Counted from the stretch's first letter, positions 5,867 to 62,054 are shown. The stretch is DNA of 64,000 nucleotides from Patescibacteria group bacterium (GCA_034678605.1 JAXDBQ010000039.1:1172-65171); one strand, 5' to 3'. Translations and numbers: made by a program. Notes: generated by a model not told the origin, from the sequence alone.

Positions 5867-7393
5867 ATGCTTTACAATAAAGAACAAATAAAACAATTGA
5901 TTCCTTACGATGACCCGTTTTTGTGGGTGGACGAGATTGAAAGCATCGCCGGCGATGTGATCGTGGGGCATAAGCAAACGCTGTCATTGGACCCTTATTT
6001 CAAGGGGCATTTCGTGGACTTTCCGATTATGCCCGGAGTGTTAGTGGTGGAAGGCATCGCCCAAACCGGCACTTTGCTTTTGCGCACCAAGCTTGGCAAT
6101 GATCACAAAAACAAGCATCTTTTGGCTTATCAAGTGCGCGGGGCGCAATTTTTGTCTCCGATATTGCCGGGAGATCGAATAAAATATCGGGTGCAGTTGC
6201 TTGGATTCTATGAAAACAAGATTGCCAATTTCGTGGGCGAGGCGTCGGTTGACGACGTTTTGAAATGCGAGGTTCGGTTTTCGGTGGCGATCATGGACAA
6301 AGAAGAGATGAAAAAAAATTTCACCCGCAACGCGGCCCAAAGCGCGGCGGCCTCGGCCGATTCCATCCAAAAAGCGGAAACAAAATTATATTCTCTGCCG
6401 CCGTTGAATATCGGGCGTTGGACGGCTAAATATCCCATTATCCAAGGGGGGATGGCGGTGCGCGTTTCTTTGCATAATTTGGCGGGCAACGTTGCCAAAG
6501 AAGGCGGCGTGGGCATTGTGGCCGTGTCGGGAATGAAAGATCCGCAAGAAGCCAAAGATGAGATCGCCAAAGCGCGCGCGATCGCCGGCAAAGACGGCGT
6601 AATCGGCATCAATATCATGGGCGTGGTGGGGCGCTTCCAGCAATTGGTACGGGCGGCGGTTGAATCAAAAGTGGATCTGATCATCCAGGGAGCGGGGTTT
6701 CGAACTGATATTTTTGAGATTGCCCGCGAAGGTAATGTGCCGGTGGTTTCGTTGGCATCATCGGCAAAGGTGGCTAAAAAGGCCGAAGCCGCGGGCGCGG
6801 CGGCGGTGATCGCCATCGGGGCCGACGCGGCCGGTCATCTTGGTTTTCCGCATGGCATTCCGTTTCGCAAGACGATCGATATTCTTAAAGAGATCGCGGC
6901 GTCGGGCATTAAAATCCCGATTTTGGCCGCGGGCGGAATTTTCACCGGCGCCGACATTGTGGAAATGATGCGCGCCGGCGCGGCGGGGGTGCAATTGGGC
7001 ACCCGTTTTGTTTCCACTGAGGAATGCGATGCCGACGCGCGTTTCAAGCAAGCGCATATCAATGCCACAAAAGAGGACAGCATTATTATCCATTCGCCGG
7101 TGGGGTTGCCGGGGCGGGCGATTCGCACGCCGTTTTCAGACAAAGTGGCGGCCGGCACCGCGCCCAAGCCGAACCCCGCCGAGTGCCAGGGTTGCATCGG
7201 GCCGGTGTGCGATAAGAGTTATTGCATCCTTAAGGCCTTGGAAAACGCGCGCAAGGGAGATATCGAAAACGGGATCGTTTTTGCCGGCACCAATGTTTGG
7301 CGAGTGAACAAAATTTACAAAGTAAAAGACCTGATTAAGGAGCTGGTTGATGAAGCCAACGCCATCTTAAAAGAAAACCCGCTAATCATTTAA
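5867..7393 (+). CDS. Fusion of FabZ-like hot-dog dehydratase (N-terminus) with FabK/nitronate-monooxygenase-type FMN enoyl reductase (C-terminus)
   Basis: Residues about 1-150 carry FLWVDEI..., YFKGHFVDFPIMPGVLVVEGIAQTG (FabZ active-site region). From about residue 190 come YPIIQGGMAVRVS ... AAGGIFTGADIVEMMRAGAAGVQLGTRF (FabK/NPD TIM barrel). Confidence 0.8.
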   Translation: MLYNKEQIKQLIPYDDPFLWVDEIESIAGDVIVGHKQTLSLDPYFKGHFVDFPIMPGVLVVEGIAQTGTLLLRTKLGNDHKNKHLLAYQVRGAQFLSPILPGDRIKYRVQLLGFYENKIANFVGEASVDDVLKCEVRFSVAIMDKEEMKKNFTRNAAQSAAASADSIQKAETKLYSLPPLNIGRWTAKYPIIQGGMAVRVSLHNLAGNVAKEGGVGIVAVSGMKDPQEAKDEIAKARAIAGKDGVIGINIMGVVGRFQQLVRAAVESKVDLIIQGAGFRTDIFEIAREGNVPVVSLASSAKVAKKAEAAGAAAVIAIGADAAGHLGFPHGIPFRKTIDILKEIAASGIKIPILAAGGIFTGADIVEMMRAGAAGVQLGTRFVSTEECDADARFKQAHINATKEDSIIIHSPVGLPGRAIRTPFSDKVAAGTAPKPNPAECQGCIGPVCDKSYCILKALENARKGDIENGIVFAGTNVWRVNKIYKVKDLIKELVDEANAILKENPLII

Positions 7394-7497
7394 GTCAAAA
7401 ATCAAAAGTCAAAAGCCAAAATTTAAAGTTAAAAGTTAAAAAATTATTAATTGTAGTTTTGACTTTTGAGATTTAACTTTTGACTTTAATTTGAAAT
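7394..7497. repeat. Word-hairpin family D (aaagtca/aaagtta words)
   Basis: gtcaaaaatcaaaagtcaaaagccaaaatttaaagttaaaagttaaaaaa ... tagttttgacttttgagatttaacttttgactttaatttg. The arms are complementary. Confidence 0.75.
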
Positions 7498-8444: not shown

Positions 8445-9107
8445 ATGAACAGGGCAGTATCGTTTATTTCTTGGATATTGTTGGATTGGTTTTTTCGATT
8501 GTTTGTCGTAAAAGAGATCCGCGGCAAGGAAAATTTTTCCAAAAAAAAGAATTACATTCTGGCGGCCAACCACGTGAGCCATTTGGACTGGCTGATCGGC
8601 TGCTATTTGTGCGTGCCGCGCAAATACACGTTCATCGGCCAAGTGGACAAAATCAAAGGGATCAAAGGAATGTTGCGCGATCTGATGTATTGGACCGGCG
8701 AGACGATTCGGGTGGACCGGCGCGACCCGGCTTCAAAAGAAAAAGCCGCGGCTAAAGCGATTGATTTTTTGAAAAAAGGGTATAATCTGTTTTTATTTCC
8801 CGAAGGCACGCGCTCGCGCGACGGTAAATTGCAAATGTTTCGCCGGGGAGTGGGCAAATTATATTTGGAAACCGGCGTGCCGGTTTTGCCGGTGGTTTTT
8901 TGGGGCACGCGCCAAATGATGCCGCCGGGCCAAAAAATAAAGCTGGATCGCTCGGCGATCGCGGTTATCGGCAAACCGCTTGAATTTTCTGATTTGCGGG
9001 CGCAAGCCAAAGGAATTGATAAAAACTCGGACAAATATTTGCGGCTTTGCGAAACCATCGCCAAAAAGGTTGAGGAGGAAGTGAGCGCCTTGCTGGCCGC
9101 AAATTAA
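8445..9107 (+). CDS. plsC: 1-acyl-sn-glycerol-3-phosphate acyltransferase family (PlsC-like), paralog 1
   Basis: NHVSHLDW (HX4D), FPEGTRSRDG and VPVLPV blocks. Confidence 0.8.
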   Translation: MNRAVSFISWILLDWFFRLFVVKEIRGKENFSKKKNYILAANHVSHLDWLIGCYLCVPRKYTFIGQVDKIKGIKGMLRDLMYWTGETIRVDRRDPASKEKAAAKAIDFLKKGYNLFLFPEGTRSRDGKLQMFRRGVGKLYLETGVPVLPVVFWGTRQMMPPGQKIKLDRSAIAVIGKPLEFSDLRAQAKGIDKNSDKYLRLCETIAKKVEEEVSALLAAN

Positions 9108-9227
9108 AAACTAAAATCTAAAAAGTAAAAACGACAATCTTAAATTAAAAAATAAAAAATCAATTAAACGATTTTAAATTTTAAATTTTCGTTTTTAATT
9201 TTTCATTTTTACTTTTTAAATTGAAAG
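9108..9227. repeat. Word-hairpin family F (aaaatt/aaaacg words)
   Basis: aaaactaaaatctaaaaagtaaaaacgacaatcttaaattaaaaaa ... ttttaaattttaaattttcgtttttaatttttcatttttacttttt. Confidence 0.7.
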
Positions 9228-26823: not shown

Positions 26824-26933
26824 GATTTTAAAGTCAAAATTCAAAAGTCTGCGCCGGAGGCGCATCCGTCCTTTGGCGGAAAAAGTCAAAAGTTAAAGTT
26901 AAAATCCTGAAAGTTTTGAAGTTCAGCTTTGAA
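26824..26933. repeat. Word-hairpin family D carrying a GC twin-mini-hairpin insert (G2)
   Basis: The arms ttttaaagtcaaaattcaaaagtc ... aaaagtcaaaagttaaagttaaaatcc are direct repeats rather than complementary. The insert tgcgccggaggcgca tccgtcctttggcgga is at 26848-26881. Confidence 0.7.
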
Positions 26934-28610: not shown

Positions 28611-28714
28611 ACTACGAACTCAATCCAAATACTTTTGAAGGGGTCTAACCCCTGCGATTACGCAGGGGATAGACCCCAAAATGCAAATTCAATTAAACCG
28701 CCATGGCGAATTCA
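28609..28714. repeat. R2 MITE-like element (nested hairpin core ggggtcta-a-cccctgcg-atta-cgcagggg-a-tagacccc), copy 1
   Basis: The core is at 28640-28677, with the tail aaaatgcaaattc to 28690. There are degenerate terminal repeats gaactacgaac / gcgaattc. The right end overlaps the yraN start. Confidence 0.75.
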
Positions 28715-30170: not shown

Positions 30171-30262
30171 GAATTAAAAAATTAAATTCAAATGCTATTG
30201 TCGGGGTCTAACCGCCCGCGAGTACGCGGGGGATAGACCCCAAAATACAAAATGCGAAATTC
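30171..30262. repeat. R2 MITE-like element, copy 2
   Basis: gaattaaaaaattaaattcaaatgctattgtc ggggtcta a ccgcccgcg agta cgcggggg a tagacccc aaaatacaaaatgcgaaattc. Confidence 0.8.
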
Positions 30263-30896: not shown

Positions 30897-30990
30897 TTTT
30901 AGCGCAAAGCGCAAAGCGTAAAGCGCAAAGTAAAAATGCGGATTTTGAATTTTACTTTTAGTTTTTCGCTTTAAGTTTTACGCTTTTACT
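30897..30990. repeat. Word-hairpin family B, full hairpin
   Basis: agcgcaaagcgcaaagcgtaaagcgcaaagtaaaaatgcgg | attttgaattttacttttagtttttcgctttaagttttacgctttt. Confidence 0.8.
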
Positions 30991-32549: not shown

Positions 32550-32697
32550 GATTTAAAATCACGATAAATCCCAAATCCCAAGCGCTAAATCCCAAATAAA
32601 TTCAAATATCAAAATTTTAAATTAGAAGTTTTCGTTTTGATTTTTGATGTTTGGATTTGTTTAGGATTTAGAATTTAGGACTTAGATTTTTTAAGGT
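32550..32697. repeat. Word-hairpin family C, full hairpin
   Basis: aaatcccaaatcccaagcgctaaatcccaaataaattcaaatatcaaaattt ... ttttgatttttgatgtttggatttgtttaggatttagaatttaggacttagattt. Confidence 0.8.
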
Positions 32698-37726: not shown

Positions 37727-37856
37727 CCCGATAAATTAAAAATTAAAAACGAAAAAGGAAAAACGAAAGTTAAAATTTTAAAAATTTAAATCGCGGATTT
37801 TTCGGTTTTAAATTTTTCATTGTCGTTTTAAAATTTTCATTTTTAGTTTTAAAATA
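37727..37856. repeat. Word-hairpin family F
   Basis: aaattaaaaattaaaaacgaaaaaggaaaaacgaaagttaaaatttt ... ttttaaatttttcattgtcgttttaaaattttcatttttagttttaa. Confidence 0.7.
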
Positions 37857-41402: not shown

Positions 41403-41499
41403 GAATTACGAAACGCTTTGTATTTTGGGGTCTATCCCCTGTGTAATCGCAGGGGTTAGACCCCTTCAATAGCATTTAAATTTAATGGTTTTGTAATTC
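41403..41499. repeat. R2 MITE-like element, copy 3 (inverted orientation) with 12-bp terminal inverted repeats
   Basis: TIRs are gaattacgaaac / gttttgtaattc. The core is ggggtctatcccctgtgtaatcgcaggggttagacccc. Confidence 0.8.
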
Positions 41500-42473: not shown

Positions 42474-42586
42474 GTTTCACACCTTGTTTTCAATGAAACT
42501 TATCTTATTATAAACTATTAAAATAAAAAGTCAAGTATTTACGAAACGAAAAATAGTTTATAATGAATTAATAAATTATTTTTTTG

Positions 42587-45103
42587 ATGCTTTTATTTTT
42601 TAAAAAGAAATTTATAATTTTAATTTTATTGGGATTAAGTTTTTTTTCATTGGTCTGTGGAGTTTTGGCGCAAGAGGGAGGCGCCAGCGGCGGTAGTGAT
42701 TCTTCGAGTGGGTCGAGTGGGGATGGGGACGCGGGCGGGACGGCGGGAGAAGAGGGAATGACGTTGGAAGAGAGGTTGGCGGAAATCAAGGCGCAATTTT
42801 TGCTTGATGGCGACGCGGCGGCGATGCAGCAGGCGTTATTGGATGTTGCCAATACCTATGACGTGGGCCAATATGAATCGACGCAGGCACTCTATGACCA
42901 AGCATGGGAACTCTCCACTAGCGGCAATTTAAATAATAACAACAGCGACAACAATCCGCCGCCGGCCGACCCTTCGGCCCAACCAACCCAAACTTCAAGC
43001 GGGCCGACGCAGACGGGAAGCGGAAACAGCGGGAGCGGCAATGTTCCGACAACGCCGGTGGTTTCGGGAGTTTTGTCGTTGGGCAACACTACGACGCCAA
43101 ATACGGCGTTGCTTGGAAGTCAAACGCAAACCGCTGATGATGAAACGAATGACGATCAAATAATTAGTTTAGGCAATCAAACAAAACCCGACATGGTTTA
43201 TTTGGGCGATCAATCAAATTCGGGAAGTCAAACGCCGGTTGTTTTGGGCAACCAAACCAAACCCAATCCGGTTTGTATCGGCAGCGCGTGCGCCAATCCG
43301 CCAACAAACACCGTGCCAACGAGCGGAGATGATGATTCTTGGCCGGATTTCCCTGATTATTATTATGATGATCCGAGCGATTATTATGTTCCGGCGGGTT
43401 CCGGTTCGGGATCGGGTTCAAGCAGCGGCAGTTATAATACAAATACAAATTCAAACACGAACACGAACACGAACACGAACACAAATACAAACACAAATAC
43501 AAACACAAACACCGGCAATATCAACAATACCAATGTCAATACAAACAATAATAGCGGTAATGTCGCGGTTCAAGAAGTTCCGGTGACGGCGGCGGATTTT
43601 AAGCCGGTGGCCGATCAAACCGCGGCGCTTTTGCTGGCGGCCAAGGGTAATGTTTTGGATTTGCGGGTGGCGGTTTCCGGCGCCCAAGCCGTGGTTTTTT
43701 ATATCGAAGGCGGGGCGTTGCCGGCCGCGCTTTATTTGGGCGCGGGAATATCGGCGGGAGATATTTGGGATTATCGGCTTGATCTTGGGTCGGCCGGAAT
43801 TCCCAACGGCAATTATTTTATTTGGGCGCAGGTGTCAAAAGGCGGCCAGGTATTTCGCACCAAAAAACAGCCGGTGGTGGTTAATGTGTTGGTGCCGGTT
43901 GACGCGGCCAAAATCAGTGATTTAAACAAGGACATTTCCCAATTGAAGACCGAAATTGTCGTCAACGAAAAAGAGGTCGGCCAAATCGTTTCCGCCGGAG
44001 AAGGTGATATCGCGGCCAAGATCGGCGATGAATCGATGGCAAAAACCATCCGCGCGATCGCCAAAATAATGCAAGAAATTCAAGGGTTGGGCGATGATTT
44101 GGCCGAAACCTCGCGAAAATTCGCCGAGGTCAATCAAAAGATCAAACAAATAAAATTAGAGATTGATTCGCTTGTCGACGATACTCTTGATTTGATCAAA
44201 AACGATAAATCGCGCGCGTTGGACGAATTAAATCGCCAAGCCGCGGTTTTTGAAAAAGAAATCGCGCGGATCAATGCCGCGATCAAAAACAAGAACGGCC
44301 AAAAGGACGCGTTGATCGCCCAAATTTTGGCCGCGGCTCGAAAAAACGGCAATGAAGCCGAAGTTTCGCGTTGGCTGGCGGATTTTGAAAATTCGATCAA
44401 ACAAAAAGAAAAGCAAATCGCCGACAATAAAAAAGCGCTGGCCAAAGACAGCGACGGCGATGGACTTAGCGACGAACGGGAAGCGGCGCTGGGCACCGAT
44501 CCGTTCAATCCCGACAGCGACGGCGACAGCATTCTTGACGGCGATGAAGTTTCGGCGGGCTTTAATCCGTTAAAGCCCGATATTTTTTCCAATATCAAAT
44601 ACAGCAATCCGCGATTGGTTGATCCCTACAAAACCGACATCTATCGGTTTGATGAAAAAGACGCGGTGCGGGCGGTGAAATTGGCCAACGGCAAAACCGG
44701 CATTCAATTCAAGGGTTGGGGTTTGCCCAATTCCTATGTGACGCTTTTTGTTTATTCGGCGCCGGTGATCGTGGTGGTGAAAACCGATGGCGCGGGCCGC
44801 TGGACCTACACATTGAACCAGCCGATCGATGACGGCCAGCACACCGCCTACGCGGCGCTCACCGATGGCTTGGGGCAAATAAAGGCGCGGTCGGAGGTTT
44901 TGGTGTTCATCAAAAAAGGCGATTTCGTGGCGCGGGTCACTTCCAACCAAGAGGCCTCGATGGAAGCGGCCGCGCAAAAAATGAAAAGCGATTTTGGATT
45001 GTTCTTGTTTTTTGGCATCGCGGCCGCGGTGGTCGCGGCGATGGCGATTATCGGTTACGTGGCGGGACGGCAAGGCGGCAACGAAGCCGATCAAGGTTTA
45101 TGA
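42587..45103 (+). CDS. Large cell-surface protein: signal peptide, S/G/N/T low-complexity region with an (NT)n tract, coiled coil, thrombospondin-type-3-like Ca-binding repeats, C-terminal TM anchor
   Basis: MLLFFKKKFIILILLGLSFF signal; NTNTNSNTNTNTNTNTNTNTNTNT; DSDGDGLSDEREAALGTDPFNPDSDGDSILDGDE; C-terminal FGLFLFFGIAAAVVAAMAIIGYV. Confidence 0.6.
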   Translation: MLLFFKKKFIILILLGLSFFSLVCGVLAQEGGASGGSDSSSGSSGDGDAGGTAGEEGMTLEERLAEIKAQFLLDGDAAAMQQALLDVANTYDVGQYESTQALYDQAWELSTSGNLNNNNSDNNPPPADPSAQPTQTSSGPTQTGSGNSGSGNVPTTPVVSGVLSLGNTTTPNTALLGSQTQTADDETNDDQIISLGNQTKPDMVYLGDQSNSGSQTPVVLGNQTKPNPVCIGSACANPPTNTVPTSGDDDSWPDFPDYYYDDPSDYYVPAGSGSGSGSSSGSYNTNTNSNTNTNTNTNTNTNTNTNTNTGNINNTNVNTNNNSGNVAVQEVPVTAADFKPVADQTAALLLAAKGNVLDLRVAVSGAQAVVFYIEGGALPAALYLGAGISAGDIWDYRLDLGSAGIPNGNYFIWAQVSKGGQVFRTKKQPVVVNVLVPVDAAKISDLNKDISQLKTEIVVNEKEVGQIVSAGEGDIAAKIGDESMAKTIRAIAKIMQEIQGLGDDLAETSRKFAEVNQKIKQIKLEIDSLVDDTLDLIKNDKSRALDELNRQAAVFEKEIARINAAIKNKNGQKDALIAQILAAARKNGNEAEVSRWLADFENSIKQKEKQIADNKKALAKDSDGDGLSDEREAALGTDPFNPDSDGDSILDGDEVSAGFNPLKPDIFSNIKYSNPRLVDPYKTDIYRFDEKDAVRAVKLANGKTGIQFKGWGLPNSYVTLFVYSAPVIVVVKTDGAGRWTYTLNQPIDDGQHTAYAALTDGLGQIKARSEVLVFIKKGDFVARVTSNQEASMEAAAQKMKSDFGLFLFFGIAAAVVAAMAIIGYVAGRQGGNEADQGL
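43436..43512 (+). repeat. Hexanucleotide microsatellite (aacacg/aacaca/aataca units) inside the surface-protein CDS
   Basis: aacacg x4 at 43454-43477, followed by alternating aacaca/aataca units. It encodes the (NT)n tract. Confidence 0.85.
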
Positions 45104-46945: not shown

Positions 46946-48157
46946 ATGAAGACCGGAGTTGCCACCGTGCCGCTGGATTGGGGGCGGTGCCCCCGCTGGC
47001 TGTTCGAACGGATGACGCGCCTGGGGCGCGGGATTTGCGTTGCCATCGTGGAAGAATTCGGCTCGGAAGAATTGTTGAAACGTTTGTCGGATCCGGCGTG
47101 GTTCCAATCGTTGGGGTGCGTAATGGGATTCGATTGGAATTCGTCGGGGTTGACCGTGACCACGATGGGCGCGCTAAAGGAAGCGGTCAAGGGCATGGAA
47201 ACCGATCTGGGATTCTATGTTTGCGGCGGCAAGCGCGTGTCGCGCCGCACCCCCGAAGAAACGCTTGCTTGGGGCCAATTTTTGGGCTGGAGCGAAAGCA
47301 AAACCGGTAGCTTGGTCAACGCTTCCAAAATGGCGGCCAAGGTTGATTCGGCGCTGATTCAAGACGGATTTTCGATTTACGCCCATAATTTGTTGTTCAC
47401 GAATTCCGGCAAGTGGGCGGTGATCCAGCAAGGGATGAATGTTGGTCTGCAGAAAGCGCGGCGTTACCATTGGTTGGGCGACGGCGTGAATGATTTTACT
47501 GTTGAGCCGCATTCGGGCATTGCCAGCGACGCGCGCTTGAAATCGCTCAATCTCACGGCCAAGGAAAGCGGGGAGAACAAGGAAATTTCCGCCGAAATGG
47601 TGAAACTTGAGCCGGACGCGTTTTTGAAAAATTTCAAAAGCGCGGCGCAGGCGGTTTCAAAAAATATGCCCCGCCTGAAAGGCGAGGCTCGCCCCTTGGG
47701 GGCGGCCGTTGCCAATCCCAACGGTTCGAGCTTGGGGCGCCAAAGCCGCTTGCCCGGGTTTTCCGAAATGGAACTCAACGATGTGGAATTCCATTGGCAT
47801 CCGGTGGCGGCTGAAAAATTCGATCTAAAACGGCTCAAAAAAACCATTGAATTGGCGCATTTCCAAGCGCCGGAAAATTTCACGCAATTGTTGGCCGGCC
47901 AAGGTATCGGGCCAAAGACCATTCGCGCGTTGTCGCTGGTGGCCGAGATTATTTATGGCGCCAAGCCGTCCTATGAAGATCCGGCGCGTTATTCGTTTGC
48001 GGTGGGCGGCAAAGACGGCACGCCGTTTCCGGTGGATCGCAAGACCTACGACCAAATGCTGGGTGCCATGGAGCGGGGAATCCGCCAAAGCCAAATGCGG
48101 CAAGTCGAGATCGACCGGGCCCAGCGCCGCTTGGAAACCATAACCTATCCGTTTTGA
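46946..48157 (+). CDS. DUF763-family protein
   Basis: The N-terminus MKTGVATVPLDWGRCPRWLFERMTRLGRGI...LSDPAWFQSLGCVMGFDWNSSGLT matches my recollection of DUF763. It contains an in-frame G-element at 47669-47705. Confidence 0.55.
   Translation: MKTGVATVPLDWGRCPRWLFERMTRLGRGICVAIVEEFGSEELLKRLSDPAWFQSLGCVMGFDWNSSGLTVTTMGALKEAVKGMETDLGFYVCGGKRVSRRTPEETLAWGQFLGWSESKTGSLVNASKMAAKVDSALIQDGFSIYAHNLLFTNSGKWAVIQQGMNVGLQKARRYHWLGDGVNDFTVEPHSGIASDARLKSLNLTAKESGENKEISAEMVKLEPDAFLKNFKSAAQAVSKNMPRLKGEARPLGAAVANPNGSSLGRQSRLPGFSEMELNDVEFHWHPVAAEKFDLKRLKKTIELAHFQAPENFTQLLAGQGIGPKTIRALSLVAEIIYGAKPSYEDPARYSFAVGGKDGTPFPVDRKTYDQMLGAMERGIRQSQMRQVEIDRAQRRLETITYPF
47669..47705. repeat. G-family GC mini-palindrome (core ggcgaggctcgcc) inside the DUF763 CDS
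   Basis: ccccgcc tgaaa ggcgaggctcgcc ccttgg gggcgg. It encodes ..PRLKGEARPLGAA.. in frame. Confidence 0.75.
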
Positions 48158-48177
48158 ATTTGTATTTGCATTTGAAT

Positions 48178-48277
48178 CCGTAGGGGCGATTCTATGTAAT
48201 CGCCCGTATTGTAACGCTCGCATCCGTTTATGTAATTGATAGAATTCAAATACGGGCGAAAACATAGTTTCGCCCCT
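48178..48277. repeat. R1 REP-like double-hairpin element, copy a
   Basis: gtaggggcgattctatgtaatcgccc ... gggcgaaaacatagtttcgcccctac. It is flanked by gaatttgtatttgcatttg and gaatgcaaaatga tails. Confidence 0.85.
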
Positions 48278-48365
48278 ACGAATGCAAAATGAAAAACTAT
48301 TCTTCCAATAACGCGCAAAAAGGCAAGTTGGCCTATCGCACTCCCAGCCGCTTTATATATCAAAA

Positions 48366-48965
48366 ATGTCTCAACGCTCAAAAAACAAGAATCCGGAAAG
48401 GCAAAACAAATTGGAGCAAATCGCCCAAGAAATAAGCGTTTGCCGAAAGTGCCGTTTAGCCATTACCCGGAACAAGACCGTGCCCGGAGAAGGGGGCGCC
48501 GAAGCGGAATTTTTTGTGATCGGCCAGGGTCCGGGCGCCAAAGAGGATAGAACCGGCCGGCCGTTTTGCGGCCGTTCGGGGCAATTGCTCACGGAATTGC
48601 TGGCGCTGGCCGGCATTGACCGCCAAAAGCAAACTTTTATCACTTCAATCGTGAAATGTTTGCCCACGCCGCCGTTGAATCGCAAGCCCAAATCGGATGA
48701 GATTGCCGCTTGTCATGATTTTTTGATGGAGCAGCTGGAAATTGTTGGCGCCAAGAAAATAATTTTGCTGGGAGACGCGGCGTTTAAGCAATTTTTTCCG
48801 CACGATAAATTTTCCGACTGGCGGGGAAAATGGCGCCAGAAAGCCGGCAAGCGATATTTTGTTTCCTACCATCCGGCCGCCGGCATCCGATTTGTGAAAT
48901 TCAAAAAGATCCTTGAATCCGATTTTTCGAATTTGCATTTAACCCGTAGGGGCGATTCTGTGTAA
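48366..48965 (+). CDS. Uracil-DNA glycosylase, family 4
   Basis: CRKCRL...VPGEGGAEAEFFVIGQGPGAKEDRTGRPFCGRSGQLL, YHPAA. The last 6 codons and the stop (TRRGDSV*) are supplied by repeat R1-b. Confidence 0.85.
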   Translation: MSQRSKNKNPERQNKLEQIAQEISVCRKCRLAITRNKTVPGEGGAEAEFFVIGQGPGAKEDRTGRPFCGRSGQLLTELLALAGIDRQKQTFITSIVKCLPTPPLNRKPKSDEIAACHDFLMEQLEIVGAKKIILLGDAAFKQFFPHDKFSDWRGKWRQKAGKRYFVSYHPAAGIRFVKFKKILESDFSNLHLTRRGDSV

Positions 48966-49029
48966 TCGCCCGCATTCGAATTTTATAATTTACGTAATTG
49001 CAAGGGCGAAAACATAGTTTCGCCCCTAC
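48946..49029. repeat. R1 REP-like element, copy b
   Basis: gtaggggcgattctgtgtaatcgcccgc ... gggcgaaaacatagtttcgcccctac. Confidence 0.85.
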
Positions 49030-49042
49030 AATACAAACACGA

Positions 49043-49399
49043 ATGGAACTCTCCGCCTTTGAAAAACTCGTTGCCGCGGTCGCCGAAGAGCTGCCGCAAA
49101 ACATCAAAGACGCGTTGGAAAACGTGGCCATTGTGATCGACGAAAAGCCGCGGCGCAACAATTTACTGGGGTTGTATGAAGGTATTCCCCAGAATCAGTG
49201 GGGGAAAAATGATGCCCTGCGCTTGCCCGACAAGATCACGATCTTCAAGGCCGCCATCGAGCAGGATGCCAAAACTCCGGAAAAAATAAAAGAACTGGTC
49301 AAGATCGTGGTTTGGCATGAGATCGCCCACCACTTCGGCTTCGATGAACCCCAAACCCGCCGCCTCGAGCGCAACTGGCGCCATGGCTTGACAAAATGA
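49043..49399 (+). CDS. Zinicin-like metallopeptidase family protein (DUF1025-like)
   Basis: VVWHEIAHHFGFDE (HExxH). Size and layout fit the family. Confidence 0.7.
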   Translation: MELSAFEKLVAAVAEELPQNIKDALENVAIVIDEKPRRNNLLGLYEGIPQNQWGKNDALRLPDKITIFKAAIEQDAKTPEKIKELVKIVVWHEIAHHFGFDEPQTRRLERNWRHGLTK

Positions 49400-49614
49400 G
49401 AATTTTAGTTTAATTATTTTAATTAAAGAGGTGGTTTTGAAAATGATGAGGATTTGCTTGCCAGTGGAAGATAGATCTTTAATAGCAAAATTCGGACAAG
49501 AATTTTTTATGGATGGCAAATTGACGCGTTTTGTTTTTTGTTCACGCATTACAAGATTGGCGAGAAAAAATTGGAAAAATAAAATTGAACGTCGGAGGGC
49601 GCGAGGATCTTGAT

Positions 49615-51246
49615 TTACTCGCGTATTTTTTTTACCATATAGGTTTTCTGCAATTTATAGCCGTTTTTGCGCCAGTATTGGCGCGCGCCCACGCCCGAGA
49701 TTGCGGCGATTTTTTTTGCGCCAAATTCGGTTTTAGCGACGTGCTCGGCTTCTTTAATTAATTTTTTTCCCAATCCGGTGTGCTGGGCCGCCGATAGGCG
49801 AGCCTCGCCCTTTGGGCGGGCCGATTCGCTTTTTAATTCAATTGGAATTTGCAATCCATAAGTATGTATTTCCCGAATTATCGCGTTTGTATTTTTTGGT
49901 AGGGGCGATTCTGTGTAATCGCCCGCATTTGATATCCTCAATCGCAAAAGCGAAAATAATTTTGTCTTGCTTTCATTCTCAAACGACAAAAATATCTCCA
50001 ATCCGCCCGATGCCTCATAATCGCGCCGCGTCAAGATTATTTTTTTGTTTGGATCATATCCGCCTTTGACCTCGCGGCAGCGGATGCAGGCGCAATGCCA
50101 ATTTTCTATTTCCATGTCGCGGCTAATTATCTGGCGCAAATTGGAAATTTGCTTGGTGCCGGCGGTGATGCGCGGGGAGGGGATATCGCGGATGATGCGC
50201 TCGATCCTGACATAAGGAGGGACGATTTTTTTGATCTCTTTGACGACTTCGACTAATTTTTCATCCGAATAGGGTTGGTATTTTCCGCTTTGGTAGATTT
50301 CATAGAGCGGCGCTTCTTTCAAAACCGCGCATGGATAGATTTTCAGAAGATCCGGGCAAAAATTTTGATCGGAAAACAGGATTTTAGCCATTTCAATGTC
50401 GCGTTGTGACGACGAACCAAAAAGATTGAGCATGATCTGGTAGGAAACCTTAAAGCCGGCGTTTTTTAGTAATTTCGTGGCGGCAATTGTGGCGTCAATT
50501 TTGTGGCCGCGGTTATTTGATTTCAAAACATCGTCATAGATGCTTTGAATTCCCAATTCCACGCGCGTCACGCCCAAATCGCGCAAACGCAAAATTTCTT
50601 TTTCATCGATGTGGTCCGGCCGGGTTTCGACCGAAATTCCCACAATGCGGCATTTGGCATTTTCATTTTTTTTCTGCTCGGCTTCCAAATTTAAATTCAC
50701 AGGGTTCCGATTCCTTTTGCAAAGATCGTTGCCGGCGGCAAAGCAGGCGGCGATGAATTTGGTTTGATAGGCCTTGGGATAAAAGCTCCAGGTGCCGCCG
50801 ATCACGCGCAGTTCCACTTTGTCGATGTTGTGGCCCTCGGCGGCCAGATTTTCCAGGCGTTTTTTGACTTGGACATAGGGGTCGAATTTCAAAAGTCGGG
50901 CGCGTTCGGCCGCCGGTTCCCCCGAAAGATAGCTTTTTGGGAATCCGGGCTCGCTGGGGCAATAAAGGCAATTTCCCGGGCAGGGATAGGGCTTGGTGAG
51001 CACTGAAACGTTCACGATGCCCGACAGCGACCGCACCGGCCGCACCCGCAGCAACTCTTTGAGGCGGCAAGTGTAGCAAGGTTTCACCTTGCTACACTTC
51101 AAAGCAGCCAGCAGGGAGATGTTGTCCGGATAGGGGATTTTCATTTCCTTGGCGGCTTGCCGCTTGAACGCCTCCAACTCGGCTTTGGTTTTCGGATTTG
51201 CCGCCACCAATTTTTCCGCAATAATTTGGTTGATTTGTTTTTCCAT
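49615..51246 (-). CDS. elp3: Elp3-like radical-SAM/GNAT tRNA-modification enzyme
   Basis: CPGNCLYCPSEPGFPKSY radical-SAM cluster region, VELGIQS, LRLR...IREIHTYG, and a C-terminal GNAT (QHTGLGKKLIKEAE). It contains an R1 half-element (49899-49926) and a G-element (49786-49822) in frame. Confidence 0.85.
   Translation of the reverse strand: MEKQINQIIAEKLVAANPKTKAELEAFKRQAAKEMKIPYPDNISLLAALKCSKVKPCYTCRLKELLRVRPVRSLSGIVNVSVLTKPYPCPGNCLYCPSEPGFPKSYLSGEPAAERARLLKFDPYVQVKKRLENLAAEGHNIDKVELRVIGGTWSFYPKAYQTKFIAACFAAGNDLCKRNRNPVNLNLEAEQKKNENAKCRIVGISVETRPDHIDEKEILRLRDLGVTRVELGIQSIYDDVLKSNNRGHKIDATIAATKLLKNAGFKVSYQIMLNLFGSSSQRDIEMAKILFSDQNFCPDLLKIYPCAVLKEAPLYEIYQSGKYQPYSDEKLVEVVKEIKKIVPPYVRIERIIRDIPSPRITAGTKQISNLRQIISRDMEIENWHCACIRCREVKGGYDPNKKIILTRRDYEASGGLEIFLSFENESKTKLFSLLRLRISNAGDYTESPLPKNTNAIIREIHTYGLQIPIELKSESARPKGEARLSAAQHTGLGKKLIKEAEHVAKTEFGAKKIAAISGVGARQYWRKNGYKLQKTYMVKKIRE
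49786..49822. repeat. G-family GC mini-palindrome inside the elp3 CDS
   Basis: ggccgcc gata ggcgagcctcgcc ctttg ggcgggcc. It encodes ..SARPKGEARLSAA.. on the minus strand. Confidence 0.75.
49899..49926. repeat. R1 half-element (single hairpin) inside the elp3 CDS
   Basis: gtaggggcgattctgtgtaatcgcccgc. It encodes ..AGDYTESPLP.. on the minus strand. Confidence 0.75.
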
Positions 51247-51282
51247 AACTTGAAATTATATGATTTTGGGATAAAGTCAAAA

Positions 51283-51378
51283 TATAAAATCGTAAAGCGA
51301 AAAGTGTAAAGTGAAAAACAAGATGCGGTATCCGTATTTTTGTTTTGCGCTTTGCGCTTTAAGTTTTTCGCTAAAAAC
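51283..51378. repeat. Word-hairpin family B in the divergent elp3/ybaB spacer
   Basis: aaatcgtaaagcgaaaagtgtaaagtgaaaaacaagatgcgg | tatccgtatttttgttttgcgctttgcgctttaagtttttcgc. Confidence 0.8.
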
Positions 51379-51636
51379 ATGTTCGAGAAACTTCAGCAGA
51401 TCAAAAAATTGCAGGAGATCCAAAGCGCGTTGAAAAACGTCAAAATCGATTCCGAAAGGAACGGCGTGAAAATTTATTTGAACGGCAAATTGGAAGTCGA
51501 GGATGTGGAATTGAATCCGGCGCTGTCGATTCCCGATCAGGAAAAGGCGGTGAAAGATTGCTTCAACGATGTGATGAAAAAGGCCCAAATGGAAGTGGCC
51601 AAGAAGATGCAAGGGATGGGAGGTTTTGGCTTGTAA
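51379..51636 (+). CDS. ybaB: YbaB/EbfC nucleoid-associated protein
   Basis: MFEKLQQIKKLQEIQSALKN ... DVMKKAQMEVAKKMQGM. Size and heptad pattern are typical. Confidence 0.8.
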   Translation: MFEKLQQIKKLQEIQSALKNVKIDSERNGVKIYLNGKLEVEDVELNPALSIPDQEKAVKDCFNDVMKKAQMEVAKKMQGMGGFGL

Positions 51637-51646
51637 GCCAAAACCG

Positions 51647-51825
51647 CAAATCCGAAGCACGAATATCGAAATTCGAAACAAATTCCGCGCCCGAGGCGCG
51701 TCCGCTTTCAGCGGAAAATTTTCAAAATTTAAATTTTCAAAACAAAATGCGCATTTGTTTTTAACATTTGAAAATTGAGATTTTGATATTGTTTCGGATT
51801 TCGACATTCGATATTTAAATATTTC
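51647..51825. repeat. Word-hairpin family A, copy A6, carrying a GC twin-mini-hairpin insert (G2)
   Basis: aaatccgaagcacgaatatcgaaattcgaaacaaatt [ccgcgcccgaggcgcg tccgctttcagcgga, 51685-51716] aaattttcaaaatttaaatttt ... gattttgatattgtttcggatttcgacattcgatattt. Confidence 0.8.
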
Positions 51826-51831
51826 TTTTTT

Positions 51832-52359
51832 ATGAACATAAAAAAGATTGTGGTGGGGTCGTTGCAAACCAATTGTTATTTGCTGCTTGACGGCGGGGAA
51901 TTGGTGATTGTCGATCCGGGGGATGAAGCGCAAAAGATAATCGGCGAAATTCAAAAAATCGGCGCCGCGGTTAAATTCATCGTCAATACGCACCGGCATT
52001 TTGATCATATCGGCGCCAACCGCGAATTGGAAAAGGAATTTGGCGTGAGGAAGGTTGATCTAAAAGACGGCGATGTTGTATCGATCGGGCAAGTACGATT
52101 GCGCGCAGTGGCAACTCCGGGCCACACGCCCGAAGGGATTTGTTTGTTCGGAAAAGATTTCGCGATTACGGGCGACACTTTGTTTGCCGATGGTTTTGGC
52201 CGCACTGATTTGGCCGGCGGATCAAGCGCGGATATGGCCGTGTCGCTGGCGAAATTGGATAATTTAATTCCCGAGGGTGGCATGGTTTATCCGGGCCACG
52301 GCGATGTTTTTGTTTACAAAAAAGGCATGGCATTGGAGTGGCTCGATTATTTGGAATAA
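51832..52359 (+). CDS. Metallo-beta-lactamase fold hydrolase (glyoxalase II-like)
   Basis: TNCYLL..., NTHRHFDHIG, TPGHTPEG, GDTLF..., YPGHG. Confidence 0.8.
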   Translation: MNIKKIVVGSLQTNCYLLLDGGELVIVDPGDEAQKIIGEIQKIGAAVKFIVNTHRHFDHIGANRELEKEFGVRKVDLKDGDVVSIGQVRLRAVATPGHTPEGICLFGKDFAITGDTLFADGFGRTDLAGGSSADMAVSLAKLDNLIPEGGMVYPGHGDVFVYKKGMALEWLDYLE

Positions 52360-52519
52360 ATTCTAAGCACCAAATCGCAAATCCCCTGCCTTTGGCGAGG
52401 CTCGCCTCCGGCGGCAAACAATATCAAAATTCAAAATTTTAAAATTCAAAACAAAAATCAAAAAGAATTTTGTTTTGACATTTGTATTTTGATATTTGAA
52501 ATTGTTTAGGGTTTAGATT
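52360..52519. repeat. Word-hairpin family C carrying a G-family insert
   Basis: The arms are ttctaagcaccaaatcgcaaatcc ... gtttagggtttagattttgggatttagg. The insert cctgcctttggcgaggctcgcctccggcggc is at 52385-52415. Confidence 0.75.
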
Positions 52520-53584
52520 TTGGGATTTAGGATTTCAATTGAAATTGTGGATTTGAGCAAATTGGAAACGATATTGGCGGGGGAGCCGGCCTACCGGGCC
52601 AAGCAGGCGCGGGAGGCGGTTTTTGGTTCATTGATCGATGATTGGAGCCAGGCGCGGGAATTGCCTGAAAATTTGCGCCAAAAATTGGCGGCAGAGTGTT
52701 CGCTTGATATCAACGCCGAAATTTTCCATTCAAAAGACGGCGCTTCGGCCAAAGCGCTGATAACTTTGGCCGACGGAGCAAAGATCGAAACCGTGCTGAT
52801 GCGGCATGGCAGCCGCCCGCGGGCGAGCCTCGCCTTTCAGGCGGGCCGGAATACGGTTTGCGTGTCGTCGCAGGTCGGCTGCCCGATGGGGTGCGCTTTT
52901 TGCGCCACCGGCAAAATGGGTTTCAAGCGGAATTTATCGGCCGATGAAATTGCGGAACAGGTTTTGCTTTTCGCGCGGATTTTGAAAAAAGAAGGCCGGC
53001 GGGTTGACAACGTGGTTTTTATGGGAATGGGCGAGCCGTTCTTGAATTATGCCAATGTGATGGCCGCGGTTAAAATTTTAAACGACCAGCGGGGGTTGAA
53101 TATCGGCGGCCGCCATATTTCGATCTCCACTTGCGGAGTTGTCGAGGGAATCGAAAAGCTTGTCGATGAACCGATCCAAGTTAATTTGGCAATTTCGCTG
53201 CACGCGCCCAACGATGCTTTGCGTTCGAAGCTGATGCCGATCAACGCCAAATATCCGTTGAAAAAACCGGTCGAAACCATCGCGCATTATATCGAAAGAA
53301 CCAACCGGAGGGTGATGCTTGAATACATAATGATCGACAAGGTCAATGATTCGGATGATTGCGCCCGGGAACTGGCCGACCTGGTGAAAACGCGATTATC
53401 GCCCAAATTGGCGTTCGTCAACCTGATCCGCTACAACCCGACCGGAGAATTTTTGGCGTCGCCGCCGGAACGGGTAAAAGCTTTCAAGGATATTTTGATG
53501 AAAGCCGGTGTGGAAACCACTGAACGTTATCGCTTCGGCCGCCAGATCAAGGCCGCTTGCGGCCAATTGGCGGCCAAAAGTTAA
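52520..53584 (+). CDS. rlmN: 23S rRNA/tRNA (adenine-C2)-methyltransferase RlmN (radical SAM)
   Basis: YRAKQ..., CVSSQVGCPMGCAFCATG, GMGEP, SLHAP. The start is uncertain (TTG 52520 lies in repeat C; GTG 52547 is plausible). It contains an in-frame G-element at 52813-52849. Confidence 0.9.
   Translation: MGFRISIEIVDLSKLETILAGEPAYRAKQAREAVFGSLIDDWSQARELPENLRQKLAAECSLDINAEIFHSKDGASAKALITLADGAKIETVLMRHGSRPRASLAFQAGRNTVCVSSQVGCPMGCAFCATGKMGFKRNLSADEIAEQVLLFARILKKEGRRVDNVVFMGMGEPFLNYANVMAAVKILNDQRGLNIGGRHISISTCGVVEGIEKLVDEPIQVNLAISLHAPNDALRSKLMPINAKYPLKKPVETIAHYIERTNRRVMLEYIMIDKVNDSDDCARELADLVKTRLSPKLAFVNLIRYNPTGEFLASPPERVKAFKDILMKAGVETTERYRFGRQIKAACGQLAAKS
52813..52849. repeat. G-family GC mini-palindrome inside the rlmN CDS
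   Basis: ccgcccgc g ggcgagcctcgcc tttcag gcgggccgg. It encodes ..SRPRASLAFQAGR.. between the conserved LMRH and NTVCVSSQVGC blocks. Confidence 0.8.
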
Positions 53585-53895: not shown

Positions 53896-53978
53896 ATGCT
53901 TGATTTATGATTTAAGATTTATGATTTTTAAATTCGAGTTTGAATTATTCTTAAATCCTAAATCCTAAATCATTATTC
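53896..53978. repeat. Word-hairpin family C variant
   Basis: gaatgcttgatttatgatttaagatttatgatttttaaatt ... gaattattcttaaatcctaaatcctaaatcattattc. Confidence 0.7.
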
Positions 53979-58420: not shown

Positions 58421-58519
58421 GAATTATGAAACGCTTTGAATTTGTATTTTTGGGGTCGTTCCCCCGTGTAATCGCGGGGGTGCGACCCCGATAATAGTAT
58501 TAGAAGAGTTTCGTAATTC
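58421..58519. repeat. R2 MITE-like element, copy 4 (inverted orientation) with 12-bp TIRs
   Basis: TIRs are gaattatgaaac / gtttcgtaattc. The core is ggggtcgttcccccgtgtaatcgcgggggtgcgacccc. Confidence 0.8.
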
Positions 58520-60434: not shown

Positions 60435-60484
60435 GAGGTCAGACCTCGGCGTGCTCGCCGAGGACTGACCTCGAATGCAAATGC
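60435..60484. repeat. R3 nested-hairpin element, copy 1
   Basis: gaggtcag a cctcggcg tgct cgccgagg a ctgacctc gaatgcaaatgc. Confidence 0.8.
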
Positions 60485-61346: not shown

Positions 61347-61397
61347 GAGGTCAGACCTCGGCGATTACGCCGAGGACTGACCTCAAATGCGAAATTC
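61347..61397. repeat. R3 nested-hairpin element, copy 2 (same orientation as copy 1)
   Basis: gaggtcag a cctcggcg atta cgccgagg a ctgacctc aaatgcgaaattc. Confidence 0.8.
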
Positions 61398-61424: not shown

Positions 61425-61931
61425 ATGCGAAATTCGGAAAACATAATTAAGGGGAGGTTGGCGGAGAGCTTGGTGGAGCAGATGCTGAAGGCAAGCGGTT
61501 GCCGGGTTTACCGTTTGGGCGCCGCCGCGGTGCTGGAAACGATTGTCCAGCTGGAAGATGAATTTTCAAAAGATAGCGCGGCGGGCAAAAAGGTTGCTTC
61601 AATTCCGGATTTTATGGTGATGGGCATGCGCGAAAGGCCGGTGTTCGTGGAGGTGAAATTCCGCGCCGAACCCGAGTCGCTGGAAGAGGAACTGCTGTTG
61701 GAAAAAGACGCGCCCGAGGGTTTTTGGGGCGCCAAGATCGTGTTGGTGACCAACAAGCAAAAACCATATTTTCGCGTGCTTGAGCCGCCCTATTTTTCCA
61801 AGGAAGAGCGCGACGGCTGGCCCATTCCGGTGGCCAACTGGAAGCCGCTGGAAAAGGATGTTGATTTGGGATGCGATGAAAAAATCATCAAAGAATTTGA
61901 AGAGCTGGTGGAGAAATATTACTCGAAATAA
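61425..61931 (+). CDS. Hypothetical protein, possibly PD-(D/E)XK nuclease fold
   Basis: IPDFMVMGMRERPVFVEVKFR resembles a D...E-x-K core. ATG at 61425; the longer call runs through repeat R3. Confidence 0.4.
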   Translation: MRNSENIIKGRLAESLVEQMLKASGCRVYRLGAAAVLETIVQLEDEFSKDSAAGKKVASIPDFMVMGMRERPVFVEVKFRAEPESLEEELLLEKDAPEGFWGAKIVLVTNKQKPYFRVLEPPYFSKEERDGWPIPVANWKPLEKDVDLGCDEKIIKEFEELVEKYYSK

Positions 61932-62054
61932 TTTTTAATTTTCAATTTTAAATTTTTAAACAAGATCTAATTTTTAAAATTTAAATATTAAAAATTGTTT
62001 ACAAATTAAAAATTACAAATTAAAAATTTTGGCAATAGGAAAGGTAAAAATTTT
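61932..62054. repeat. Word family F spacer (aaaatt/taaaaa words)
   Basis: ttttaattttcaattttaaatttttaaac ... tttttaaaatttaaatattaaaaattgtttacaaattaaaaattacaaattaaaaatttt. Confidence 0.6.

Follow-up and report, generated by a model that had tools for sequence, protein, structure and literature searches.

Four sites in a 64,000-nucleotide stretch of DNA from a Patescibacteria group bacterium (the whole stretch is called the window below) are probably copies of one miniature, non-coding, GC-rich palindrome of a mobile and selfish kind, translated in frame where it lies inside the genes of DUF763, Elp3 and RlmN. The element looks like an undescribed one, widely spread and tolerated in coding sequence. 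Its 13-nt core, GGCGAG[G/C]CTCGCC, occurs at four sites of the window, against 0.06 expected (100 dinucleotide shuffles, maximum 1). Thus, the nested palindrome that an earlier, sequence-only reading had claimed for three coding sequences and one spacer carries the core at all four places, and its excess over composition is confirmed.

The four copies in the window

Aligned on the core, the window copies consist of (G/C)CCCGCC, a linker of 3-5 nt, the core, a linker of 3-7 nt and GGCGGC, as follows:

47681-47693 (+), 49797-49809 (-), 52394-52406 (+) and 52822-52834 (-): core GGCGAGGCTCGCC, or its reverse complement with a central C
47671-47705 (+): copy A, in DUF763, CCGCC-TGAAA-GGCGAGGCTCGCC-CCTTGGG-GGCGG, encoding RLKGEARPLGA; 33-nt insert at 47671-47703, placement ambiguous by 1-2 nt
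49787-49819 (-): copy B, in Elp3, CCGCC-CAAAG-GGCGAGGCTCGCC-TATC-GGCGG-C on the gene strand, encoding ARPKGEARLSA
52384-52416 (+): copy C, intergenic, between an MBL-fold hydrolase gene and rlmN, CCCTGCC-TTT-GGCGAGGCTCGCC-TCC-GGCGG-CA, outer stem with one mismatch
52812-52844 (-): copy D, in RlmN with the element opposite to the gene, CCGCC-TGAAA-GGCGAGGCTCGCC-CGCG-GGCGG-C on the minus strand, giving SRPRASLAFQA within HGSRPRASLAFQAGRN

Copies A and B share element orientation and frame (KGEAR), copy D is read from the other strand (RASLA), and copy C is located in the 160-nt spacer upstream of rlmN. The insert-carrying segments of the three host proteins are HGSRPRASLAFQAGR, SESARPKGEARLSAAQH and NMPRLKGEARPLGAAV, and the peptides previously quoted for the genic copies are correct. 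The four copies are confined to 5.2 kb of the 64 kb, for which a rough estimate, 4 x (5.2/64)^3, gives a chance of ~0.002. The window has about 47% GC and a cumulative GC skew rising throughout, and homologues of its proteins are labelled, for instance, Paceibacterota or Patescibacteria.

A covariance model built from 55 copies of other genomes recovers exactly the four window sites (E = 4e-6 to 5e-4), with copy C as the best match at 38.2 bits, and the next match in the window has E = 0.2. Relaxing the core search to three mismatches added only background in the window, and the covariance model with its filters off yielded no convincing decayed copy there. The segment 32132-32160 (-), ACCCGCC-AAG-attttgcgcg-AAG-GCGGC-T, possesses element-like arms and linkers without the core (16.7 bits, E = 0.2) and may be a chance match or else a copy in advanced decay.

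Host genes and size of the insert

The three genic copies reside in the following genes, all intact open reading frames (ORFs), so that the frame is kept open as had been read from the sequence, with no pseudogene among them:

46946-48157 (+): DUF763 gene, host of copy A, 403 amino acids (aa)
49615-51246 (-): gene of Elp3, a radical SAM/GNAT tRNA-modification enzyme, host of copy B, 543 aa
52520-53584 (+): gene of RlmN, host of copy D, 354 aa, with the CxxxCxxC motif

Codon alignments with empty and filled orthologue DNA give a difference of 11 codons in all three genes, which bears out the view of these copies as in-frame insertions and corrects their size, given earlier as 36 nt, to 33 nt. 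The inserted block is symmetric around the core (10 + 13 + 10 nt). In RlmN, the blocks VLMRH and RNTVCV are separated by 13 residues in the window protein and by 2-3 residues in about 98 of 120 homologues, in agreement with the short spacing given earlier for orthologues. The 11 residues of Elp3 are absent in 116 of 120 homologues, including the 86%-identical P0122, and DUF763 orthologues of 392 aa, at ~83% identity, are likewise without them. Empty sites are provided by P0243 for DUF763, by P0122 and P0140 for Elp3, and by P0005 (exactly 11 codons) and L126 for RlmN. Outside the window, two Levybacteria give an unrelated case, with the 33-nt element splitting the conserved GRPGWH motif of CysRS after CGG and before CCC; a homologue has this motif uninterrupted. 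IleRS gains 11 aa in L015 relative to L051.

Regarding the junctions, no target duplication was found in the four filled/empty comparisons (three window genes and CysRS) beyond the overlap with the element ends. The placement of the insert is ambiguous by 1-7 nt, because the reconstructed targets, not identical to one another, are GC-rich and overlap these ends, as seen in Elp3 (CGGCCC...CGGCCC), CysRS (CGGCCCG...CGGCCCG) and RlmN of P0002 (GGCCGC...GGCCGC).

Position of the inserts in the proteins

The inserts had been expected in surface loops, and this is supported by low-confidence loops in the models of RlmN and DUF763 and by gaps relative to solved structures. In the AlphaFold2 model of RlmN (84-sequence alignment, mean predicted local distance difference test score (pLDDT) of 89.5), the insert, residues 97-109, is predicted to extend the β-hairpin loop between strands 88-96 and 110-115; it is the sole internal stretch with a pLDDT below 50, and the solved RlmN 6fz6 has an 11-residue gap exactly at this place. 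The DUF763 insert (243-253) lies within a linker, 240-277, modelled as disordered (pLDDT < 50, AlphaFold2), which bears indels in other lineages as well. Meanwhile, the Elp3 insert occupies the loop between the HTYG and QHxGxG motifs, at a gap relative to the solved Elp3 6iad.

The same loops accept other sequences. Unrelated inserts of 7-30 residues, e.g., APPEGEPFRKGG and GLPAQAG, are present in the RlmN loop of scattered lineages (P0009, P0018, P0042, P0046, P0050, P0059, P0062, P0064, P0072, P0074, P0080, P0087, P0108, P0112 and P0120), and the DUF763 linker holds inserts of ~10-11 residues such as LRSSPERNEG (P0253, P0268, P0270 and P0285). Several of these alternative inserts resemble translated GC palindromes, and the RlmN and DUF763 loops are general hot spots for palindromic inserts. 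In the UvrD/PcrA-like genes of L018 and L022, which encode related helicases, the element itself is found in one loop between the RIxxLL motif and TFHSF, read as PPKARLAKGG and PAEGEARQGR, respectively; the different reading frames point to independent insertions at one permissive loop. The N-terminal linker of Elp3 is hypervariable among Paceibacteria, other lineages having different short inserts (FRGLDPLKI, GSLTSTNY and others), and in the window it includes a perfect 13-bp hairpin at 51067-51106, GTGTAGCAAGGT-ttc-ACCTTGCTACAC, which encodes KCSKVKPCYTC and is probably another palindrome-derived coding insert of a different family.

Architecture and coding compatibility

The survey employed a pattern of 23 defined bases, CCGCC N3-6 GGCGAGGCTCGCC N2-7 GGCGG, which matches at least 119 loci of GTDB species representatives and at least 120 JGI metagenome contigs. 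The copy statistics given here and below hold among the matches listed and concern contigs below 60% GC, with 118 copies in the genome collection (three of them window copies) and 101 in metagenome contigs. Above 60% GC the match lengths are irregular (28-36) and chance-like, whereas the element-bearing low-GC genomes have 33-59% GC and a chance expectation far below 1.

The basic 33-nt unit can be written as N-C-CCGCC-L1-GGCGAG-S-CTCGCC-L2-GGCGG-C-N, in which L1 and L2 measure 3 nt, or 6 nt in the form C-N4-G. The element ends are (T)C-CCGCC and GGCGG-C, and the flanks outside the window are mostly T-C...C-A/T. Its regularities are as follows:

Summed linker length of 6, 9 or 12 nt (spans of 29, 32 or 35 nt): 115 of 118 genome copies, 96 of 101 metagenome copies
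C directly 5' of the pattern (-1): 117 of 118 and 100 of 101
C directly 3' of the pattern (+1): 116 of 118 and 99 of 101
T at -2: 64% and 51%

Open frames of at least 150 codons run through 81 of 115 genome copies and 70 of 101 metagenome copies, and the genic copies use both orientations and all six frames. A Pfam scan of 20 element-bearing ORFs matched 19 to known families, the confirmed hosts being IleRS, PriA (two copies in one gene), GlnD, a P-type ATPase, an FHA protein kinase, a MiaB-like enzyme, trigger factor, IMPDH, two PolX, LigA and a Mur ligase; UvrD and CysRS are additional hosts. The 29/32/35 length classes also dominate outside long ORFs (42 of 45 copies), and therefore the periodicity of three belongs to the family and is not just a filter of selection.

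The 3-nt linkers are purine-only on both sides in 29 of 66 copies and pyrimidine-only on both sides in 19, with pairable combinations in 5 of 66, so that in 48 of 66 copies the linkers are unpaired and the loops open. Due to these non-pairing linkers, 99 of 118 copies (84%) have no stop in any of the six frames, compared to 57% for random linkers. The frame used by genic copies never contains a stop, and the host frame was kept in all copies examined. Purine linkers are found on the sense strand 35 times versus 4, a bias that could come from selection for hydrophilic loops or from the orientation of insertion.

The four CGCC/GGCG blocks allow two folds, either of which is predicted depending on the copy: a nested hairpin, with CCGCC/GGCGG, a 3x3 internal loop, GGCGA/TCGCC and a GGC loop, or two adjoining mini-hairpins, each CGCC-NNN-GGCG. 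Hirao et al. reportedly placed C-GAA-G and C-AAA-G closures among the most stable DNA mini-hairpins, which makes a single-strand DNA form plausible.

Distribution across genomes

As more than 100 genomes with titles of many phyla carry the element, the idea of a lineage-specific curiosity has to be given up. The Patescibacteria titles are Levy-, Shapiro-, Blackburn-, Davies-, Uhr-, Harrison-, Staskawicz-, Buchanan-, Portnoy-, Sungii-, Wirth- and Saccharibacteria. The others include Planctomycetota (with Brocadiia), Omnitrophota, Elusimicrobia, Ignavibacteriota, Melioribacter, Saprospiraceae, Melainabacteria, Chlamydiales, Deltaproteobacteria, Syntrophaceae and metagenome-assembled genomes (MAGs) labelled 'Gammaproteobacteria'. 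Rickettsia or Rickettsiales appear in no record title among the matches listed. Sub-types follow lineage: Planctomycetota mostly have the 6-nt C-N4-G linker and extra outer stems, and Patescibacteria mostly 3-nt linkers. Moreover, host proteins are consistent with the labels, such as an FHA-domain protein kinase in a Planctomycetota MAG and DUF3326 in Melainabacteria.

Age, decay and loss

In the sister strain L120 (GCA_964551425.1), 99.7% identical over the common 21 kb, copies A, C and D are identical and copy B is absent. Here the window segment 48987-51245 (2.3 kb, Elp3 and a Zincin_1 gene) shares only ~87-88% identity with L120 10032-12223, the flanks remaining at 99.7%, which means a divergent Elp3 allele rather than a clean empty site. 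The two strains differ in their Elp3 allele, presumably owing to recombination, and the segment represents a recombination import or an alternative allele.

The window inserts are old and not recent, because equivalents exist in more distant orthologues. In DUF763 of P0242 (84% identical), the insert occupies the codon used in the window, its palindrome destroyed but the frame kept in an intact gene; 11 of the 13 changes are from G/C to A/T, the decay that a neutral passenger would show. In RlmN, the core is perfect and the linkers differ in P0002 (77% identical) and P0007 (69%); copies are decayed in P0006 and P0015, shortened in P0003 and P0004, and missing from P0005 and P0010. In addition, Elp3 of P0160 (68% identical) and P0165 (66%) has a 33-nt insert that agrees with the window copy in codon position, frame and orientation and differs from it by point changes. 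Equivalent residues in orthologues, which the sequence-only reading regarded as evidence against lineage-specific insertion, are therefore present in part, but only inside the same order-level group. The patchy presence is explained either by a single gain followed by several precise losses or by more than one gain at a favoured site. For all three host proteins, the 90% clusters contain nothing but a start-codon variant, with no empty site.

Local multiplication and flanking wings

Signs of recent multiplication, taken as evidence for mobility, are seen in L019, with two identical winged copies, and in L020, where three copies within 5 kb, at three different sites and two of them in priA, have identical linkers and identical 14-nt wings, made of two AGCGTTC heptamers per side. 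Directly oriented wings of 7 nt or more flank 20 of 117 copies, compared to 1 of 110 control flank pairs, and they are genome-specific heptamers, mostly of the form AAANNTC. The heptamer wings were considered as target-site duplications and rejected, because the same 14-nt wings flank the three different sites in L020. The wings AAAAATC, AAAAGTC and AAAATTC were met in MAGs labelled Harrisonbacteria, Ignavibacteria and 'Gammaproteobacteria', and they are of the type that makes up the period-7 words between the window's genes.

Two further arrangements were observed. L029 (4291-4373) bears a tandem pair, as a 54-nt duplication with the element inside an ORF, and the metagenome contig L205 (235-902, 66% GC) has four copies in 0.7 kb, in both orientations, within one 371-codon ORF.

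Relation to known palindromic elements

Ogata et al. reportedly described, in 2000, the Rickettsia palindromic elements (RPEs), RPE-1 to RPE-10. Like them, the present element resembles a selfish palindrome in frame in intact genes, translated as surface segments, found between genes too, in a small-genome host. RPEs, however, measure ~100-150 bp, add 30-50 aa and belong to Rickettsia and relatives, whereas this element has 33-39 nt, adds 11-13 aa and extends over many phyla; the two are set apart by size and range. The functional analogy to RPEs, proposed from the sequence alone, holds. Their standing as the sole precedent does not, since repetitive extragenic palindromes (REPs) inside ORFs are reported from Opitutus, Thauera, Xanthomonas and R. 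conorii (Di Nocera et al. 2013, PMC3733652). The reading as an RPE-like in-frame palindrome is thus right in kind but too narrow.

REPs and REP doublets forming hairpins (REPINs) are, like the element, GC-rich imperfect palindromes of 20-40 nt in many copies. ORF-located REPs are notable in replication and repair genes, and PriA, UvrD, LigA and PolX are among the hosts here; some REPs are placed inside larger palindromes, as is copy C. One end of a REP bears a GTAG or CGTC tag (PMC3733652), whereas this element ends in (T)CCCGCC...GGCGGC, and neither tag adjoins any of the four window copies. REPs are mainly extragenic and largely species-specific; the element, in contrast, is mainly genic and near-identical across phyla. 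REP/REPIN are thought to be mobilised in trans, without target duplication, by a hairpin-specific HUH tyrosine transposase, the REP-associated tyrosine transposase (RAYT), but no RAYT was found near any copy (2-15 kb per copy and the 64-kb window). By the defining features of the RPE and REP families, the element is outside both.

Short GC palindromes in AT-rich genomes, often as two adjoining hairpins and possibly in frame, are also known as GC clusters and double-hairpin elements (DHEs) of fungal mitochondria, such as the var1 GC clusters of yeast, the DHEs of Allomyces and the 'byps' of Magnusiomyces. Those belong to eukaryote organelles and some are bypassed, whereas the element keeps the frame, and no sequence relation between them is known. 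The palindrome-associated transposable elements (PATEs) derived from IS200/IS605 may share single-strand hairpin ends, the lack of target duplication and a conserved short flank at the hairpin foot; unlike two abutting half-palindromes, they have at least 100 nt, a left end that differs from the right one and a target fixed to four or five nucleotides. A motif scan of the ORFs around the copies showed no TnpA.

Other candidates were rejected. The precise gain of 33 nt without duplication, no separate terminal repeats and no long parent speak against a miniature inverted-repeat transposable element of DDE-transposon origin, which has terminal inverted repeats, a target-site duplication and 70-300 bp. 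An intrinsic terminator is contradicted by the position of three of four copies within ORFs and by the absence of a T run after any of them, on either strand. TIGR or CRISPR repeats, integron attC, dif and parS were dropped, as both sequence and spacing seem unsuitable. Rfam 15 gave no family at the element in eight element-bearing loci outside the window, only one tRNA and two matches far below gathering scores. The core sequence and a cross-phylum genic palindrome have no description in the searchable literature, which omits most subscription journals; the REPs inside ORFs were the only precedent to come up.

Earlier genic palindromes (Rickettsia, a few REP-rich bacteria) formed families limited to a genus or so each, whereas here one 33-nt unit with an invariant 13-nt core is common to genomes labelled as many phyla and is mostly genic. 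If true, this would reveal an element of minimal size that spreads horizontally and a recurrent source of 11-13-residue loops in RlmN, Elp3, aminoacyl-tRNA synthetases, PriA, UvrD and LigA. Its copies could serve as natural markers for permissive loops and for strain recombination, the window Elp3 allele being an example. Caution is also due in the annotation and phylogenetics of uncultured lineages, as such inserts produce false 'lineage-specific' indels.

Mechanism and alternative explanations

As a selfish repeat of the REP/RPE kind, the palindrome would be copied as DNA to new sites without target-site duplication. Owing to its multiple-of-three length and usually stop-free frames, a copy in a permissive loop would add just 11-13 residues and can therefore persist. 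The insertions in DUF763, Elp3 and RlmN became fixed long ago, the ribosome would read through them as loops, and afterwards a copy may decay by mutation (P0242, P0006, P0015), be deleted or keep its core. For the movement itself, an unlinked hairpin-specific nuclease or transposase, acting in trans on stable single-strand DNA hairpins, is tentatively preferred, at somewhat less than an even chance; the logic of RAYT/REP or IS200/IS605 is chosen because target duplications are missing, hairpins of the single strand are stable and the unpaired bases next to them are conserved. Wider still, and falling only a little short of evenly probable, is a pan-bacterial class of coding-compatible mobile DNA: a twin hairpin of 33/36/39 nt whose 3n length, non-pairing loops and stop-free frames would be shaped for life inside genes, which would have moved between distant phyla, driven by a hairpin-specific enzyme or by host replication and repair, in many lineages with genome-specific heptamer wings, a hint of a larger, composite system of repeats.

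Several results weigh against a mobile, neutral and widely exchanged palindrome. No vehicle was detected: IMG/VR, with 2.9 million viral contigs, gave 0 matches, 50,697 phage records gave none, and 72,556 plasmids only two weak matches (E = 0.3), from Microvirga and Azospirillum. Nor was a driver seen, as an all-against-all BLASTP of 1,439 ORFs of element loci showed no conserved neighbour gene and no family in more than 5 loci, and a crude motif scan of 2,513 ORFs (2-15 kb around copies and the 64-kb window) no HUH-Tyr ORF. A long parent with the half-palindromes as terminal repeats was also missing, the extra half-sites being variant or decayed full copies. The taxon labels are MAG record titles, some of them doubtful: L022 is titled 'Gammaproteobacteria', but its UvrD is a close match to the one in L018, a Shapirobacteria MAG. 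Recent movement was not seen in the window genome, its three inserts being old, and near-identical strains showed no presence/absence polymorphism. The recurrent Elp3 site could be one ancient event with many losses instead of repeated insertion. Finally, the 13-nt core is perfect in RlmN orthologues at only 69-77% protein identity, which points to constraint or gene conversion and not to pure neutrality.

Copying by host replication or repair without a transposase is the first alternative, possible but unlikely. The GC-rich end of a nascent strand (e.g., CGGCCC) would anneal to another copy, copy the hairpin and switch back, with later precise loss by slippage. Each of the four reconstructed targets is GC-rich and runs into the element ends, which leaves the placement ambiguous by 1-7 nt, copies form local clusters (4 in 5.2 kb in the window, 3 in 5 kb in L020, 4 in 0.7 kb in L205), no mobilising gene was found near them, and the patchy presence at one Elp3 codon suits easy, precise loss. 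The overlaps, clustering and patchy loss in the window thus fit a transposase-free template switch about as well. However, the prevailing T-C...C-A/T flanks elsewhere are not GG/CC, and the apparent junction microhomology is therefore a trait of the window sub-type; the uniform boundaries (C at -1 and +1 in ~99%) suit a defined cut better, and template switching by itself gives no account of near-identical units across phyla.

A selected functional site is improbable. The element would then be bound by a conserved dimeric protein with affinity for DNA or RNA (parS-like, chromosome-organising) or be an RNA structure for mRNA decay or translation. Its core and unpaired flanking C's are strictly conserved across phyla, the non-pairing linkers are conserved as well, the core of RlmN orthologues is intact though the surrounding synonymous sites are saturated, four copies cluster in one 5-kb stretch, and intergenic copy C lies in a strongly structured region (z = -5.5). 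However, copies are decayed or absent while the host gene is intact (P0242, P0006, P0015, P0005, P0122), and the host genes and positions are mutually unrelated, without a common neighbour gene. Moreover, the sites arise as insertion of a whole 33-nt block and not by point mutation, have no Rfam match and occur in both orientations and all six frames.

It is very improbable that the insert stays untranslated, whether through excision of a mini-intervening sequence from the RNA or through ribosomal bypassing. A stable hairpin does lie within the coding region; the ribosome bypasses the GC-rich 'byp' palindromes of Magnusiomyces mitochondria and the T4 gene 60 gap, and mobile GC clusters can become translational bypass elements. 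Removal, however, would need neither a 3n length nor open frames, whereas the lengths of 115/118 and 96/101 copies agree modulo 3, the genic copies keep the host frame with the used frame stop-free, and the decayed P0242 copy, unable to fold, is still in frame in an intact gene.

An independent origin at each site, by template switching that perfects quasi-palindromes, or an assembly artefact is effectively refuted: palindromes can form de novo in this way and all data come from metagenome assemblies, but the same core and arms recur at four window loci and in more than 200 contigs of different studies and naming styles (scaffold-, NODE-, k141-), in frame in conserved genes, and the sister-strain assembly is identical at three copies.

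Heptamer words and other repeats in the window

The intergenic DNA of the window consists mostly of period-7 tandem words (AAAGCGT, AAAGTCA, AAATCCT, TTCGATA and others) and their reverse complements, and paired words form long AT-rich hairpins (fold z of -4.9 and -5.5). Twin hairpins of the type GCGCC-NGA-GGCGC followed by TCCGYC-TTT-GGCGGA occur at 26850-26880 and 51686-51715. They had been described as related variants of the element and are alike in style, but the core is absent and the covariance model misses them; instead of at the apices of word hairpins, as claimed, they are placed in the 5' arm, at a multibranch junction. Both GC twin hairpins and copy C are located between heptamer-word blocks, and the words and the GC element may form one composite repeat system. 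A second, unrelated palindrome family of ~38 nt, GGGGTCTA-a-CCCCTGCG-atta-CGCAGGGG-a-TAGACCCC, has a minimum free energy of -31 to -36 kcal/mol and lies within dispersed repeats of ~100 nt, which are also matched in L120. The positions are as follows:

7392-7487, 9101-9222, 18377-18426, 30901-30986, 32566-32690, 37733-37855, 52424-52535, 53901-53971 and 61929-62028, among others: heptamer-word regions
52370-52535 (+): AT-rich word hairpin, z = -5.5, with copy C in its 5' arm, as context outside the 33-nt unit
28639-28678, 30203-30242, 41427-41466 and 58451-58490, with the variant at 60435-60474 and 61347-61386: six copies of the ~38-nt palindrome

In addition, an ORF of 839 aa (42584-45103) includes, at 43439-43512, ACAAAC repeated 12 times, which gives a poly-(Asn-Thr) tract; its product, with low-complexity Gly/Ser-rich stretches, is probably surface-exposed.

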